Assembly: GCF_055900595.2 (NCBI RefSeq)
Contig: NZ_CM148325.1
Length of the DNA stretch: 64,000 nt
Strand: one strand, 5' to 3'
The position numbers and the translations under genes are program-made. Below are positions 46,297 through 58,002 of the stretch, piece by piece. Below the pieces are notes generated by a model. It saw only the letters and a program-made list of their open reading frames with translations, was not told where the DNA came from and made no database searches. Positions within the stretch are counted from its first letter, which is position 1. Each line of letters begins with the position of its first letter.

Positions 46297-46372
46297 TAGT
46301 TCAGGATGGATCATTTGGGCAGGTGCTCACATCATCAACAGATATGATTGTTCACCTGCCATGTGACAGACG

Positions 46373-46648
46373 CTATCGCACAGGATGAATAAGATAATTC
46401 GCCTTTGTCGGAAAAGGGGGCGTGATGTCTTCTGTGAGATTTAATGGTGGCGCATCTTCTCTCATCTTAAACAAAATCGCCTGTGATGGTTGAAGTTTTG
46501 TAGAATGAGTTGTCGTCATCACTGACGTTTTTTCTGTCCCTTTATAGCTCGTCTCACTTCCACCACCAGAAATGGAAAATGCAAAAACATTGCATGCCAT
46601 AATAGAGACCAATAAAAATAAGCTAAAAAGCATTAAGTTTACTTTCAT
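46373..46648 (-). CDS. ypdI: Small secreted/lipoprotein-like protein YpdI
   Basis: 91 aa with signal peptide and Cys near the cleavage region (SIMAC); conserved position. Confidence 0.75.
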   Translation of the reverse strand: MKVNLMLFSLFLLVSIMACNVFAFSISGGGSETSYKGTEKTSVMTTTHSTKLQPSQAILFKMREDAPPLNLTEDITPPFPTKANYLIHPVR

Positions 46649-46790
46649 AGAAAGTTATCCTGAGAATGGCTCACTGAGAACCTACGATGTTATGGCTGTA
46701 TTTACATTTAATTAATCAGTATTTACATCGATATAATAAATGACATCTCTTTGTGGTATATAAGAATAGTTCTCTGCGACAGGAAGCATA

Positions 46791-46845
46791 TTCCTACAAT
46801 TGTAAGACTAAATACTTCTTGCGATAATAACTACAACTGTAAGAT
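46791..46845. promoter_or_regulatory. Two EvgA-box-like 18-bp inverted repeats upstream of yfdX
   Basis: TTCCTACA-AT-TGTAAGAC (46791-46808) and TAACTACA-AC-TGTAAGAT (46828-46845) versus consensus TTCYTACA-N2-TGTARGAA. Confidence 0.45.
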
Positions 46846-46942
46846 AACCCTTTCAAAATGACCGTTGCTCTCTGATTTCTCATTTCATGCTCACCCAATA
46901 TGATGGCGGCGTTTTCTAAAACTGTTAAAGAATGAGGTAAGT

Positions 46943-47575
46943 ATGAAACGTTTAATTATGGCTACGATGGTCACAGCAGTTCTGGCATCTTCAACTGTAT
47001 GGGCTGCTGATAATGCACCGGTAGCAGCACAACAGCAAACTCAGCAAGTTCAGCAAACCCAGAAAACGGTAGCAGCAGAGCGTATCTCTGAACAGGGTTT
47101 ATATGCGATGCGTGACGTGCAGGTAGCGCGCCTGGCTCTGTTTCATGGCGATCCGGAAAAGGCAAAAGAACTGACCAATGAAGCTTCCGCTTTGCTGTCA
47201 GATGACAGTACTGAATGGGCAAAGTTCGCTAAGCCAGGTAAAAAGACCAATGTCAATGATGACCAATATATTTTCATTAATGCATCTGTCGGAATTTCTG
47301 AGAGTTATGTAGCGACACCCGAAAAAGAAGCCGCGATAAAAATTGCCAACGAAAAAATGGCGAAAGGGGATAAAAAGGGCGCAATGGAAGAGCTTCGCCT
47401 GGCCGGTGTTGGTGTAATGGAAAACCAATATCTGATGCCGCTTAAACAGACTCGTAATGCACTTGCTGATGCGCAGAAACTGCTTGATAAAAAGCAATAC
47501 TACGAGGCAAACCTGGCGCTTAAAGGTGCGGAAGATGGAATCATCGTCGATAGCGAAGCACTGTTTGTGAACTAA
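46943..47575 (+). CDS. yfdX: Periplasmic protein YfdX (EvgA-regulated, function unclear)
   Basis: 210 aa with signal peptide; first gene of yfdX-frc-oxc-yfdV-yfdE cluster. Confidence 0.9.
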
Positions 47576-47819
47576 TGCTGACAGGCAGCATATTGAAGTA
47601 AAAGATTTTACTCCCTCCTGGCGACAATTTTTTATGACCACAATACGACCGATTGTGGTCATAAAATTATTTGGCGCTCGCGGTTCTATTAACACGAATT
47701 TTCTATTCCTCAAAGTAAACATCAATAATCCCGTGTCATCACGAAATCATTGTTTATGTTATGTTTTATGGTACGATTTAAAAATCGTAATCATTTCCCT
47801 AACTGTAAATCACAATCGC

Positions 47820-47837
47820 TTCTTACAGTTGTAAGAA
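47820..47837. promoter_or_regulatory. Perfect EvgA-box palindrome about 250 bp upstream of frc
   Basis: TTCTTACA-GT-TGTAAGAA, a perfect 8-2-8 inverted repeat matching the EvgA consensus. Confidence 0.55.
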
Positions 47838-48088
47838 TAACATCACAAATGTCGCGGCTCTCTCTGATTACCGCAAACCAATATTTATCATATTCTTCTT
47901 TTCGTCCTCACTACTTACCATGCAAAAAGGAATTGGAAGTGGCGATGAAATGATTTTCCGCACTTGATACAGGAATTTAAAAATATCGAGTGCAGCTACG
48001 ACGATATTTTGCGGATTATTTATAGAGGGCGTTATGCCTTAAATAAACGCTAAATTAACATATATTTAATTAACTAATAGGTATTGCT

Positions 48089-49339
48089 ATGTCAACTCCA
48101 CTTCAAGGAATTAAAGTTCTCGATTTCACCGGTGTGCAATCTGGCCCATCTTGTACTCAGATGCTGGCGTGGTTTGGCGCTGACGTCATTAAAATTGAAC
48201 GTCCCGGCGTTGGTGACGTAACGCGTCGCCAGCTGCGAGATATTCCTGATATCGATGCGCTTTACTTCACCATGCTTAACAGCAACAAACGTTCTATTGA
48301 ATTAAATACCAAAACAGCGGAAGGCAAAGAGGTAATGGAAAAGCTGATCCGCGAAGCTGATATCTTGGTCGAGAACTTTCATCCAGGGGCTATTGATCAC
48401 ATGGGCTTCACCTGGGAGCATATTCAGGAAATCAACCCACGTCTGATTTTTGGTTCGATCAAAGGGTTTGATGAGTGTTCACCTTATGTGAATGTAAAAG
48501 CCTATGAAAACGTTGCTCAGGCAGCGGGTGGCGCGGCATCCACTACGGGTTTTTGGGACGGCCCGCCGCTGGTAAGCGCTGCAGCGTTGGGTGACAGCAA
48601 CACCGGAATGCATTTGCTGATCGGTTTACTTGCTGCTTTGCTGCATCGCGAAAAAACGGGGCGTGGGCAACGAGTTACCATGTCAATGCAGGATGCCGTG
48701 TTGAACCTTTGCCGCGTGAAATTACGTGACCAGCAGCGCCTCGATAAGCTGGGTTATCTGGAAGAATACCCGCAGTATCCGAATGGCACATTTGGCGACG
48801 CAGTACCACGCGGTGGTAATGCGGGTGGTGGCGGTCAGCCTGGCTGGATCCTGAAATGTAAAGGCTGGGAAACCGATCCTAACGCCTATATTTATTTCAC
48901 TATTCAGGAGCAAAACTGGGAAAACACCTGTAAAGCTATCGGCAAACCAGAATGGATTACCGATCCGGCATACAGTACAGCTCATGCCCGACAGCCACAT
49001 ATTTTCGATATTTTTGCTGAAATCGAAAAATACACTGTCACTATTGATAAACATGAAGCGGTGGCCTATTTGACTCAGTTTGATATTCCTTGTGCACCGG
49101 TTTTAAGTATGAAAGAAATTTCACTCGATCCCTCTTTGCGCCAAAGTGGCAGTGTTGTCGAAGTAGAGCAACCGTTGCGTGGAAAATATCTGACAGTTGG
49201 TTGTCCAATGAAATTCTCTGCCTTTACGCCGGATATTAAAGCTGCGCCGCTATTAGGTGAACATACCGCTGCTGTATTGCAGGAGCTGGGTTATAGCGAC
49301 GATGAAATTGCTGCAATGAAGCAAAACCACGCCATCTGA
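48089..49339 (+). CDS. frc: Formyl-CoA:oxalate CoA-transferase (family III CoA-transferase)
   Basis: 416 aa, CaiB/BaiF family; paired with oxc. Confidence 0.95.
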
Positions 49340-53374: not shown

Positions 53375-56300
53375 TTAGTCATTTTGTTGACAGAAAACCG
53401 CAATCTCCTGGTCTAACTCTGCAATGTGTTCTTTAACAGAGTTCAGCAACTTAAGAATTTCAGGCTTGCTGTCATCTGAAACTGGCGTTATTTCTAACTG
53501 GTGGCTAAGATTAATCAACTTTTGCAAATTCAGGATGTTAGCCGCACCGTGGATGCGATGAATACACTGATGGAAAGTTCTGTTATCGCCAGCTTCTAAC
53601 GCATGAAACGCAGCGGGTAGATCTTTATGCGTTTCATGCTGGAAAGTCATGAGAATCTCCTGCATCAGTTGTAGATCGTTCGCCGTATTATTTTTCAGGG
53701 CCTCGATATCAAGGTGGCGATACTGAGGTGCAATATGTGCAACCTGGTGTAACTGACTTAAATGTGTTTTCAGTACATCCAGGGTTAACGGTTTGAACAA
53801 ACATAAGTTCATGCCGCAATTTAACCCTTTTTCACGTTCGTTAGCCTGTGCGTTGGCTGTAAGCCCCCAGATGGGTAAGGAAGAATTTTGCTCACGGAGT
53901 TTGCGAGTCAACTCAAAACCATCCATATTCGGCATATTAACGTCAGTAATAAGCAGATCATAATGCTGCATACTGACTTTGTGTAGCGCCTGTACACCAT
54001 CAGAGGCTTCATCAACATCATATCCTAATAGGTTTAGCTGGCGTTTGAGTAATAGCCTGTTGGTCGGATGATCATCCGCGATTAATATGCTCAACTTTTC
54101 AGGGAGTGTCATAGGTTGTTCTGCTTTTGCCTCGACAGTCGCCACTTGTTGGGTAATTTCTACCGGGATTGTGATCGTAAATGTCGTTCCTATGCCGGGA
54201 TGACTTTCTAATGACAAATCGCCCTGCATGTTTTTAATTAATTCTTTGCAGATCATTAAGCCTAAACCAGAACCTGTTTGCTGACGACCTGCTGTTGTTT
54301 GGCTATAGCGTTTAAACAGTTGTTGTTGTTCTTCCTGCGATAATCCGCTTCCGGTGTCCATAATCGTCATTTTGATAACAGCGTGGTTGTCATCAATATG
54401 AACCAGGGAAGTCGTAATTTTTACTGCCCCCTCGGTGGTAAATTTAAGGGCATTACTCAGTAAATTAGACAGCACCTGCTTAAATGCTTGAGGGTCGATT
54501 TTAACCAGGTAGCGTTCAGGAAGCGTACTGCTGCAATTTAATGCGATGGATTTGCTTGCAGCAATCGCACCGAAAGAATGACAAGTGTTCTGGACTAAAG
54601 TAGGGATATCGACCCATTGTGGTTGAAGTTGATAGTTACCCGACTCAATTTTGTCGACATCAAGGATTTCACCAATTAAGCCGAGGAGCGACTGTCCGGT
54701 GGCGTAAGCAAGTGAAATCGCCTCCACACGTTGCTCCTTGCTAAGACCTGAACCCGACAGAAGTTCCAGGAAGCCCATAATGGAGCTTATTGGTGTTCTT
54801 ATTTCGTGACTCATTGTTGCCAGGAACTGGCTTTTTGCGACAGTTGCATTGATCGCTTTATTTCTTTCTACTTCGAGTGCATGAATTAAATCACGCGTCT
54901 CGGTAATATCTTGCCAACCACAAATATATACTGCATTGTCACTTGCAGGTAAATTGCATAATGTATGCCAATGATTAATGCATCTTTTTTCAGTACCATT
55001 ATTAATTTCAAAAACTTGGCTATATATTGTTCTGTTTTCTTTTGTTTCTGCTGTGACTTCATGCACATTAGAAAAAACATCTTTAAAGGGGGAGTCACTG
55101 TTTTCTAATGGTAACATTGCATTTTTGTAGTAATCAGCAGTGAAATAATGTTCAAATGCACTATTGTGACTAATGACATTACCTTGCCAGTTTACAACAT
55201 AAGTTGGATTCGGTAAGGAATCCGAGAGTGCTTTCCGGAATGATATTTGGTTTTCTAAATCACCCTGAATTACCTTACGACGACGAACTGAGCGTAACAG
55301 GTAGAATCCCCATAAAAGGCTACTGCCAACTAATAAAACGGATAAAGTCGTAACAATGTAAAATTGCTCACTATAGAGGTCCCATGTGTCAATGGTCACA
55401 TTGGGCATTTTGATCCATTTTTCCGTCAGGCGCAGAACTTCGCTTGGGGGAATTGCATTCAATGCTTTATTAATAATATCCTTAAGTTCTGGTTCTCCGC
55501 GAGGAAAAGCGAACGAAAGCGATGCATTCTCAACGCCGGGAATAAGAAAATGATAAAGCTCATTAGGATAGTAATGGTCGATCATGTAACGCGAATTTAG
55601 CTGTGTCGCGACCAGGGCATCAAGTTCACCTTCCTTAACCTTGTGAAATGCAGCGCTAGCATTATCGACTTGTATCCACTCAACCTCCGGATACATCTCT
55701 TTCAATTGCGAATGAAGCTCATAATAATATGGAATGGCAACTTTCATTCCTTTTTTTAAAGTTTGTTCACTATCAGGCGCTTTTTGCATGACGAAAACGT
55801 AAGGCGTTGTTATGAATGCTTCAGCAAATAAAACATTATTTTCTCGATCTTCATTATAAATAGCGCCAGGTAAGATATCCCATCCATCGGGATTAAGCTG
55901 TGTTCCGGCATGGATATTGTGTGAAACGGTGATCGGAGAAAATCTTAAACCTGTTTGCAATGTAATAATATTAAGAATATCCCCCATAACGCCCCGAACC
56001 GAGCCATTTTCATCAGTCATAGAATAGGGAGGGGAGTAAGGATTTTCCAGCACCTTTAAATCGGGATGTTGCTTAATCCACTGTTTTTCATGTTCAGTGA
56101 GTTCTAATGGTTTGTTCAGAAAGGCCAGGTTTCCTGTATCAAGCCAATTTTGTGATACTTCATAGCGAACTTCATTTGTTAAAGCATCAACAAACCGATT
56201 GAGTACTTCATTAAGAATGACGGATTCTTTTCTGGTCAAGAAAAAATTATATTGACGCGGCGAGTTATAATATTTCACTACATTTAAGGAGTGAGTGAAA

Positions 56301-56968
56301 TAGCGGGAAATCATACTGCTGGTAATGATGTTACTACCAATAAAGTAATCATTATGTCCGGTAGAAACGGATGCTAATGCCTGATATAAATTTGTAAAAG
56401 AGATAATTGTTGCTTTTGGAAATGATTGATGAATTACCTTGTCTGGGGGGTAATTTGCTACCCGAGCAATATTTACTGGTTTTGGTGAGGTAAGCGGTCG
56501 CATTGAGTCGTGAAGGGTGGTTACCAGCGCCGGAAAGGTAATTATCAATGGTTTGGTTGCAGCAATGTCATTATTAAGAGGCGGCGAAGTAACTAAATGT
56601 GATAACACTATATCGACTTCACCTTCTGCAAGCGCGTCCATTGCTTTTTGATGATCTGCGTATTCCCGGAGTGTTAATTTGATATTTAACGCTCTTTTTA
56701 AAAGATTTAAATAATCAGCATTAATACCACGAACCCGTTGCTGCGAATCGGTATGCAACAACGTAGCCGTTTGGGACTTGTGTACTGCAATCACAAGATT
56801 TTTTTTGCTCGCTAACCAACGTAATTCCTTGTTGCTCAGACGTAGTGGATCAAGCGTGACACGGTTGTTACTACTGATGCCACGATATTCGATGTAATCT
56901 TCGTCTGCGAAACTTATGGTCGACCAAAGACCACAACAGAGAAGAAAAAAATAGGGTAAAAACTTCAT
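53375..56968 (-). CDS. evgS: Hybrid sensor histidine kinase EvgS (periplasmic tandem binding domains, HisKA/HATPase, receiver, HPt)
   Basis: 1197 aa; His box SHEIRTP, receiver domain and C-terminal HPt. Confidence 0.95.
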   Translation of the reverse strand: MKFLPYFFLLCCGLWSTISFADEDYIEYRGISSNNRVTLDPLRLSNKELRWLASKKNLVIAVHKSQTATLLHTDSQQRVRGINADYLNLLKRALNIKLTLREYADHQKAMDALAEGEVDIVLSHLVTSPPLNNDIAATKPLIITFPALVTTLHDSMRPLTSPKPVNIARVANYPPDKVIHQSFPKATIISFTNLYQALASVSTGHNDYFIGSNIITSSMISRYFTHSLNVVKYYNSPRQYNFFLTRKESVILNEVLNRFVDALTNEVRYEVSQNWLDTGNLAFLNKPLELTEHEKQWIKQHPDLKVLENPYSPPYSMTDENGSVRGVMGDILNIITLQTGLRFSPITVSHNIHAGTQLNPDGWDILPGAIYNEDRENNVLFAEAFITTPYVFVMQKAPDSEQTLKKGMKVAIPYYYELHSQLKEMYPEVEWIQVDNASAAFHKVKEGELDALVATQLNSRYMIDHYYPNELYHFLIPGVENASLSFAFPRGEPELKDIINKALNAIPPSEVLRLTEKWIKMPNVTIDTWDLYSEQFYIVTTLSVLLVGSSLLWGFYLLRSVRRRKVIQGDLENQISFRKALSDSLPNPTYVVNWQGNVISHNSAFEHYFTADYYKNAMLPLENSDSPFKDVFSNVHEVTAETKENRTIYSQVFEINNGTEKRCINHWHTLCNLPASDNAVYICGWQDITETRDLIHALEVERNKAINATVAKSQFLATMSHEIRTPISSIMGFLELLSGSGLSKEQRVEAISLAYATGQSLLGLIGEILDVDKIESGNYQLQPQWVDIPTLVQNTCHSFGAIAASKSIALNCSSTLPERYLVKIDPQAFKQVLSNLLSNALKFTTEGAVKITTSLVHIDDNHAVIKMTIMDTGSGLSQEEQQQLFKRYSQTTAGRQQTGSGLGLMICKELIKNMQGDLSLESHPGIGTTFTITIPVEITQQVATVEAKAEQPMTLPEKLSILIADDHPTNRLLLKRQLNLLGYDVDEASDGVQALHKVSMQHYDLLITDVNMPNMDGFELTRKLREQNSSLPIWGLTANAQANEREKGLNCGMNLCLFKPLTLDVLKTHLSQLHQVAHIAPQYRHLDIEALKNNTANDLQLMQEILMTFQHETHKDLPAAFHALEAGDNRTFHQCIHRIHGAANILNLQKLINLSHQLEITPVSDDSKPEILKLLNSVKEHIAELDQEIAVFCQQND

Positions 56969-56972
56969 GTGA

Positions 56973-57587
56973 TTAGCCGATTTTGTTACGTTGCGCGAAT
57001 GTGTAAAGATCCATCAGTGATTTACATTCTAATTTTTCCATCAGGCGACTTTTATACGTGCTGACAGTTTTGTTGCTGATGAACATTTTTTCCGCAATGT
57101 CATTATTGTCCTTGCCATCAAGAATATACCTCATGACACTAATTTCTTGTTTCGATAAGGAGTCGAGTTTTTGCTGGTCGGACGTTAAACTTCCAACAAA
57201 CCGGTTGAGAGAGAAAGGGAAATAGCAGTAGCCATTTTTTGCAGCTTCAATAGCCGCAATGATATTGTTCATGCCTTCTTTTTTACTCACGAATCCATTA
57301 GCGCCTGCATCAGCACAATGTTTCCCGTAAAAATGGTCATTTTTAGCGGAGACGATAATAATAATTCCGCTATATTGGCGCTTCCTCAGCGTTTCTAACA
57401 CCTGGATACCGTTAACTCCGGGGATATCGACATCAATGATGACGATATCAGGTTTAAGTGTTTCCACCCGCTGAACGGCACTTCCCCCTTCAGTCAACTC
57501 CGCTAAGATTTCAATATCGTTTTTGATCAATAAATTACGAATTGCTGCGATAGCAAGAGGATGGTCATCAATAATTATTGCGTTCAT
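56973..57587 (-). CDS. evgA: Response regulator EvgA (NarL/FixJ family)
   Basis: 204 aa; receiver domain plus LuxR-type HTH. Confidence 0.95.
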   Translation of the reverse strand: MNAIIIDDHPLAIAAIRNLLIKNDIEILAELTEGGSAVQRVETLKPDIVIIDVDIPGVNGIQVLETLRKRQYSGIIIIVSAKNDHFYGKHCADAGANGFVSKKEGMNNIIAAIEAAKNGYCYFPFSLNRFVGSLTSDQQKLDSLSKQEISVMRYILDGKDNNDIAEKMFISNKTVSTYKSRLMEKLECKSLMDLYTFAQRNKIG

Positions 57588-57801: not shown

Positions 57802-57819
57802 CTTCTTATTAATCCTACA
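57802..57819. promoter_or_regulatory. EvgA-box-like inverted repeat in evgA-emrK divergent region
   Basis: ATCCTACA-GG-CGTAAGAA versus TTCYTACA-N2-TGTARGAA, one mismatch per half. Confidence 0.5.
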
Positions 57820-58002
57820 GGCGTAAGAATTGTATTGCAAAAGTCACGGTTTAGTCCTCTGTTGTATCTTCTGCAACTCCTTTAAATTAGGCCTCCAACG
57901 TTCCTGGGATAATGTGTAACACATGCACTGTGTTTGATATGAAGAATGAATACTCTTTTCATTCAATTCATAAATTTCATCTATGCGAAATGAGAGATAA
58001 TA

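Follow-up and report, generated by a model that had tools for sequence, protein, structure and literature searches.

The window, a stretch of 64,000 nucleotides analyzed at its full length, is a segment of the Escherichia coli chromosome in reversed orientation relative to K-12. It carries the lipoprotein gene ypdI and, divergent from it, the known EvgA-induced gene yfdX, together with frc, oxc, yfdV, yfdE, emrK, and emrY. The cognate regulator genes evgA and evgS are both encoded in the same window as the boxes described below (Table 1). The ypdI-yfdX intergenic region (46649-46942) was 99.0% identical to that of K-12, compared with 91.6-97.4% for the flanking genes and spacers, and this high identity could reflect either local constraint or a recombination mosaic. 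The most diverged segment between the window and K-12 was the yfdX-frc spacer (91.6% identity). Identity of at least 99% to the window over positions 46300-48200 was found in only 17 of 5,423 records. In E. coli strain 3359, IS1 takes the place of the sequence from the ypdI-yfdX intergenic region through most of yfdE, and both boxes and the whole yfdX-frc-oxc-yfdV block are gone.

Table 1. Genes, EvgA-type boxes, and promoter elements, with positions in the window
Feature	Position	Strand	Description
ypdI CDS	46373..46648	-	Lipoprotein gene, divergent from yfdX
Predicted ypdI -10	46733..46738	-	TATTAT
ypdI fixed-distance element	46758..46765	-	TCTTATAT, exactly 25 nt from box 1 toward ypdI
Box 1	46791..46808		TTCCTACAATTGTAAGAC; 18-bp EvgA-type inverted repeat; 1 mismatch to TTCYTACANNTGTARGAA
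Conserved decamer	46818..46827	+	TTGCGATAAT, directly upstream of box 2
Box 2	46828..46845		TAACTACAACTGTAAGAT; 18-bp EvgA-type inverted repeat; 3 mismatches to TTCYTACANNTGTARGAA
Conserved CA	46854..46855	+	Offset 9-10 past box 2
yfdX fixed-distance element	46871..46878	+	TCTGATTT, exactly 25 nt past box 2; TCYKATTT class
Predicted yfdX -10	46899..46904	+	TATGAT
yfdX CDS	46943..47575	+	Pfam YfdX; ATG at 46943; known EvgA-induced gene
frc box	47820..47837		Perfect EvgA box, upstream of frc
evgS	53375-56968	-	
evgA	56973..57587	-	Response regulator, presumed binder of the boxes
evgA/emrK intergenic box	57812..57829		2 mismatches; canonical layout toward emrK

Sequence, conservation, and spacing of the two boxes

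The original prediction had placed two 18-bp inverted repeats, 37 bp apart, upstream of yfdX, had likened them to EvgA boxes with the second as the weaker, and had read them as a tandem pair with graded or cooperative EvgA occupancy. Sequence and coordinates of the repeats proved exact. Box 1 and box 2 are separated by 37 bp from start to start, and their centers lie 143.5 and 106.5 bp upstream of the yfdX ATG, respectively. The likeness to EvgA boxes held as well: neither repeat is explained by chance, and both show conservation. When the window was searched over its full length with up to 3 mismatches to TTCYTACANNTGTARGAA, 4 matches were obtained against 0.63 expected, the remaining two being the frc box and the evgA/emrK box, and 0 of 100 shuffles reached this number. 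A weight matrix was trained on five other K-12 EvgA boxes (evgA/emrK, frc, safA, ydeP, and yegR). With this matrix, box 1 scored 19.0 bits and box 2 14.6 bits, ranking third and fourth in the 64-kb window. Box 2 is thus the weaker of the two by mismatches as well as by score, and it falls clearly below the 19-25 bits of the known sites. However weak, a score of this height is expected by chance at only ∼6 × 10−6 per position, or ∼0.002 per 300-bp intergenic region. All three mismatches of box 2 are at outer positions, and its 14-bp core CTACA-NN-TGTAAGA is perfect.

Activation of yfdX by EvgA has been described (PMC3720670). As relayed in that paper, EvgA-bound inverted repeats upstream of yfdX and yfdW were reported in 2003 (Masuda and Church 2003, via PMC3720670). 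Also cited there to the 2003 study is the K-12 EvgA box TTCYTACA-NN-TGTARGAA, for evgA/emrK, ydeP, safA(b1500)-ydeO, yegR, yfdX, and frc(yfdW). The 2003 study reportedly included gel shifts for the "yfdX repeat". Box 1 is the best consensus match of the region and is therefore probably the published yfdX site, known since 2003. Considering the match statistics, the conservation, the presence of evgA and evgS in the window, and the literature on EvgA control of yfdX, both boxes are very probably functional in the yfdX control region.

Conservation was assessed in an intergenic alignment of nine diverse E. coli strains and one Yersinia vastinensis, and both boxes were kept in all ten sequences. 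Within E. coli, the substitutions were concentrated at the central NN, which was AT or AC in box 1 and AC or GT in box 2, and in the spacer separating the boxes. Among the nine E. coli strains, 1 of 32 specified box positions was variable, compared with 3 of 4 at the central NN and 58 of 262 in the rest of the intergenic region. In this small and phylogenetically related sample, Fisher tests on the specified positions gave p = 0.002 versus NN and p = 0.009 versus the rest of the intergenic region. The whole comparative set (nine E. coli, six Buttiauxella, and one Yersinia) is likewise small and phylogenetically non-independent. The 9 nt after box 1 were hypervariable in the nine strains. The decamer TTGCGATAAT that follows them is nearly invariant in E. 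coli and kept in Y. vastinensis. It overlaps a TG-extended −10-like hexamer whose −35 (TTGTAA) sits inside box 1, so that it may represent either the TG-extended −10 within a promoter-like sequence, TTGTAA-17-GATAAT, or the site of another protein. As a rival core promoter, TTGTAA-17-(TG)GATAAT (46800-46828) was rejected because box 1 would cover its −35 and box 2 its start, a repressor geometry that is unfit for activation by EvgA.

The 37-bp spacing of the window is a rare allele, with exact matches to the window's 66-bp query (≥99% identity, a level that no inexact match of this length attains) in 8 of ∼4,140 matching records. In the other genomes sampled, K-12 included, one extra A results in a spacing of 38 bp. 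The 38-bp unit that spans box 1 to box 2 is polymorphic in copy number, and its tandem duplication creates a hybrid third box, TAACTACAATTGTAAGAC. The duplication junction, and with it three boxes, was present in 414 of 5,426 complete E. coli genomes (e.g. STEC434), and four boxes were found in one strain, IBS28. Both outer promoter layouts, described in the next section, are kept intact by the duplication. The variation in copy number looks like the outcome of unequal crossing-over between the two boxes.

A fixed-distance layout downstream of EvgA boxes

Known EvgA-box promoters were aligned on the box and read toward the regulated gene. A common layout was observed, consisting of CA at offsets 9-10, a TCYKATTT-like octamer at offsets 26-33, which begins exactly 25 nt past the box, and, after another 19-20 nt, a −10-like hexamer at offsets 53-59. 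Octamer and −10-like hexamer were TCCTATTT and TATATT at safA, TCTTATTT and TAATTT at ydeP, TCCTATTC and TATTAT at yegR, TCCTCTGT and TTAAAT at emrK, and TCTGATTA and TATTCT at frc. The CA was found at all five of these promoters and also at yfdX of Buttiauxella. With the five independent promoters anchored on the box, the strongest downstream conservation lay at offsets 24-33. The best 8-column block reached 7.15 bits, whereas the random-shift null gave 4.42 ± 0.46, and 0 of 5000 nulls reached 7.15. The chance of finding TCYKAT plus a −10-like hexamer at the fixed offsets was 4 × 10−5 per position for the window and 1.5 × 10−4 for AT-rich sequence.

At frc, safA, ydeP, yegR, and emrK the layout was confined to the gene side of the box. 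No second box was detected within ±120 bp of any of these five boxes, the best neighbor scoring ≤2.3 bits, so tandem boxes are no general requirement of EvgA. The frc box is located 260 bp upstream of the frc ATG, which together with the layout implies a long 5′ leader of the frc transcript. CA and TCYKA fit positions 7-8 and 2-6 of an EvgA-like half-site, with implied dimer centers at ∼+20 and +42 bp from the box. The two elements may thus be extra low-affinity EvgA contacts reaching to the −35 region, or a specialized RNA polymerase contact may be made there.

When the two boxes of the window were compared with this layout, box 2 showed it in full toward yfdX, with the CA, TCTGATTT, and TATGAT. 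The element TCTGATTT resembles an EvgA half-site, overlaps the −35 region, and is invariant in the nine E. coli strains. Toward ypdI, box 1 has TCTTATAT, of the same class as TCTTATTT of ydeP, and TATTAT in register, but lacks the CA at offsets 9-10. In the fixed-offset comparison, neither box 1 read toward yfdX nor box 2 read toward ypdI showed the layout. The "weaker" box 2 is thus in the canonical position for yfdX, and the "stronger" box 1 in that for ypdI. Starts were set ∼7 nt after each −10, which predicts a yfdX start at ∼46911 (K-12 ∼2494434, minus strand) and a ypdI start at ∼46726 (K-12 ∼2494620, plus strand). Relative to these predicted starts, box 2 would be centered at ∼−74.5 for yfdX and box 1 at ∼−73.5 for ypdI.

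Two further sequences on the ypdI side were noted. The sequence TAAGAATAGTTCTC (46761-46774) resembles an RcsB box, but the TCTTAT element of the layout facing ypdI accounts better for these bases. A direct repeat of GTATTTACAT, with the copies 21 bp apart, occupies positions 46698-46737, around and just downstream of the predicted ypdI start. Within this repeat, TATTTACA matches the EvgA half-site at 6 of 8 positions.

In published expression data ypdI behaves as an EvgA target. On exposure to glutathione, ypdI was up 5.5-fold together with yfdX (9.8-fold), yegR (11.9-fold), and ydeO (5.3-fold), and emrK, frc, and oxc rose as well (PMC5811628). The ypdI RNA amounted to ∼1.1 rpkm at pH 7.6, ∼11 at pH 5.8, and ∼2.9 at pH 4.4 (PMC10746267, Table S3), and yfdX had a log2 fold change of 4.89 under acid stress in the same work. 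Furthermore, ypdI belongs to the EvgA i-modulon (Sastry et al. 2019, PMC6892915), for which a computed EvgA motif "upstream of ypdI" is listed at K-12 position 2494486 as TTTTGAAAGGGTTATCTTACAGTTGTAGT (Suppl. Table 4). This 29-mer is identical to box 2 plus its yfdX-ward flank. A literature search, with the original EvgA papers outside its reach, returned no mapped transcription start, footprint, or EvgA ChIP result specific to the ypdI-yfdX region, and nothing that tells binding at box 1 from binding at box 2.

Related yfdX loci in Buttiauxella and Yersinia

A YfdX scan of the genome collection returned nine loci, namely E. coli, Y. vastinensis, six Buttiauxella, and one contaminant-like contig of 241 bp. 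No other Escherichia species, Klebsiella, or Salmonella was among these nine. The contig, part of a Limosilactobacillus vaginalis scaffold, encodes a YfdX C terminus 100% identical to the window's protein and is almost certainly E. coli contamination of the assembly.

In the six Buttiauxella species yfdX adjoins evgS/evgA homologues and is divergent from hdeD-hdeB-gad. The Buttiauxella EvgA is 71% identical over all 204 residues, and the segment SNKTVSTYKSRLMEKL is identical. Two TCTGACA-type palindromes, 20 bp apart, are present between hdeD and yfdX. The distance from the center of the yfdX-side palindrome to the end of the −10 is 67.5 bp, identical to that of E. coli box 2. In all six species the distal palindrome is followed toward hdeD by 25 nt, TCTTATTT, and then TACTAT or TACCAT. 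These registers indicate that the design of two boxes and two promoters recurs with a different left-hand gene. The surrounding region is a compact acid-stress island, with a gad-like decarboxylase gene, an hdeB/A-like gene, and hdeD on one strand and yfdX divergent from them, followed by evgS-like and evgA-like genes on the strand opposite to yfdX. The Buttiauxella half-site has TCTGACA in place of TCYTACA, and the G variant also occurs in the E. coli TCTGATTT elements.

In Y. vastinensis the yfdX-frc-oxc block is present but ypdI is missing. The layouts of box 2 toward yfdX and of the frc box are preserved there. Box 1 is degraded, at 13.3 bits as compared with 19.1, and no leftward layout is present. 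The block, which resembles that of E. coli and includes the EvgA boxes, follows arsB-arsC (NZ_CACVAF010000001.1). Its YfdX is 83% identical, and the block was probably acquired by horizontal transfer.

Proposed assignment of the boxes and comparison with known systems

The register of box 2 toward yfdX and of box 1 toward ypdI, the expression of ypdI, and the Buttiauxella loci argue for one box per promoter. We therefore lean, at somewhat better than even confidence, toward two genuine EvgA boxes serving back-to-back divergent EvgA-dependent promoters, box 2 that of yfdX and box 1 that of ypdI. EvgA is a response regulator of the NarL/FixJ family that EvgS activates at mildly acidic pH. In the corresponding mechanism, a dimer of EvgA∼P on box 2, at ∼−74.5, would drive rightward transcription of yfdX from a weak core promoter composed of TCTGATTT and TATGAT, and another dimer on box 1, at ∼−73.5, would drive leftward transcription of ypdI via TCTTATAT and TATTAT. 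We infer the transcription starts, the occupancy of each box by EvgA, and the promoter that each box activates. Box 1 may also help yfdX besides ypdI. Some observations speak against this assignment. Toward ypdI, box 1 lacks the CA. The acid induction of ypdI could come through another regulator. In the 2003 study of Masuda and Church, ypdI is reportedly not among the seven directly EvgA-induced operons. In addition, the published assignment ties the sequence of box 2 to ypdI (PMC6892915, Suppl. Table 4).

The latter entry would fit a crossed assignment, with box 1 as the yfdX site and box 2 as the ypdI site, each acting from ∼−111, and box 1 as the best consensus match would then be the likely yfdX site of 2003. 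However, neither box has the shared downstream layout in the crossed direction. The 2019 motif of 29 nt, which extends from box 2 into the yfdX-ward flank, fits box 2 serving yfdX, and the wording "upstream of ypdI" sets no direction because the intergenic region is common to both genes. We consider the crossed assignment very unlikely. It is likewise highly improbable that box 2 is only a degenerating copy of box 1 without function, left over from duplication of the 38-bp unit, which is prone to it. The two boxes do have the core CTACAAYTGTAAGA in common and are offset by one repeat unit, the alleles with three and four boxes demonstrate present-day duplication of this unit, and box 2 scores below every validated site. 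Yet hardly any variation affects box 2 and its flanks across E. coli, Y. vastinensis has kept them as well, and the changes are limited to the central NN. Box 2 also stands at exactly the right distance from a conserved core promoter, in the same register as the strong proximal Buttiauxella box, and the sequences flanking box 1 are otherwise unlike those flanking box 2.

The graded or cooperative tandem pair at yfdX could not be upheld in the form originally predicted. Only box 2 is in the yfdX register, box 1 is in register only for ypdI on the opposite strand, a single box suffices elsewhere, and the spacing varies and places the boxes on opposite helix faces. Worked out further, this tandem model, in which both boxes act on yfdX and EvgA∼P recruited by the high-affinity box 1 helps to fill the weaker box 2 near the promoter through cooperativity, is possible but on balance unlikely. 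It would result in graded or more sensitive activation of yfdX, as with primary and secondary sites at BvgA-dependent promoters, for which a strong distal and a weak proximal site are the classic design. In its favor, E. coli and Y. vastinensis have retained the two boxes jointly, and CA and TCYKA at ∼+20 and +42 bp hint that EvgA may extend downstream in steps of ∼21 bp. Such half-site-like elements toward the −35 would be one feature of a cooperative array and are conserved downstream of every box (box 1 with the CA missing, as noted above), but they may be contacts either of EvgA or of RNA polymerase. In a cooperative array, adjacent dimers would also share one helical face, ∼21-22 bp apart at constant spacing, whereas the boxes are 37 or 38 bp apart from center to center, at variable spacing. 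This distance corresponds to ∼3.5-3.6 helical turns and so puts the boxes on roughly opposite faces of the helix. Moreover, alleles that set the boxes a further 38 or 76 bp apart are frequent, with a count of 414 in 5,426 genomes, and the 9 nt after box 1 are hypervariable. The five other EvgA promoters work with one box, and box 1 has a canonical layout of its own toward ypdI. Action of both boxes on yfdX is compatible with the preferred reading of one box per promoter, and the two are not mutually exclusive.

EvgAS heads the acid-resistance cascade of E. coli, and yfdX-frc-oxc is among its strongest outputs. If the assignment of one box per promoter is true, what textbooks give as the "yfdX EvgA site" belongs to ypdI, the actual site of yfdX is a box below consensus that motif thresholds miss, and EvgA acts directly on ypdI, which opens a plausible way to activate Rcs. 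SafA is annotated as a two-component system connector in K-12 and is linked to PhoQ/PhoP. Overproduction of YpdI switches on the Rcs phosphorelay independently of RcsF, according to the account of Potrykus and Wegrzyn 2004 given in PMC11709261. A speculative extension, which we regard as doubtful, is that EvgA directly activates ypdI via box 1 and that YpdI is a second EvgAS connector beside SafA, leading from mild acid to Rcs envelope and acid-resistance functions. In addition, the copy number of the 38-bp box unit (two, three, or four boxes) could tune the output of both divergent promoters between E. coli lineages. For the prediction of EvgA or KvhA targets in other enterobacteria, the layout of box, 25 nt, TCYKATTT, ∼20 nt, and −10 is a sharper tool than the 18-mer. 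Overall, the result is a modest refinement of the known EvgA regulon, and the mechanism is not new.

The K-12 EvgA box is the same motif in the same organism, at the same locus and with the same regulator gene, and box 2 has the same invariant core. The account available for K-12, as far as it is relayed in PMC3720670, describes one repeat for yfdX, whereas here two are found and assigned to opposite promoters. The work of Sastry et al. (PMC6892915) shares with ours the membership of ypdI in the EvgA i-modulon and the motif of box 2, but gives no direction or promoter architecture and does not mention two boxes. Considering the repeat of 2003 and the motif and i-modulon of 2019, neither box is new as a sequence, and EvgA control of ypdI had already been proposed. 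To our knowledge, the fixed-distance layout, the assignment of boxes to promoters, and the Buttiauxella parallel are new.

The closest characterized homologue of EvgA is BvgA of Bordetella, whose promoters have a primary high-affinity inverted repeat and secondary low-affinity sites extending to the −35. Likenesses are the heptad-like TTCCTA half-sites in an inverted repeat, the far-upstream primary site (at ∼−74 here), and the weaker half-site-like elements toward the −35, represented here by CA at +20 and TCYKA at +42. In contrast, the box spacing of 37 or 38 bp does not fit the BvgA periodicity of ∼22 bp. In the Buttiauxella locus, too, divergent acid-stress genes are separated by a region with two EvgA-type palindromes, and each palindrome is placed canonically for its neighboring gene. 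The locus differs from that of E. coli in the half-site TCTGACA, the spacing of 20 bp, and the left-hand gene hdeD, and the stronger of its boxes is the one on the yfdX side. A comparable locus is the kvhAS-yfdX-hdeDB cluster of Klebsiella (PMC6394985).
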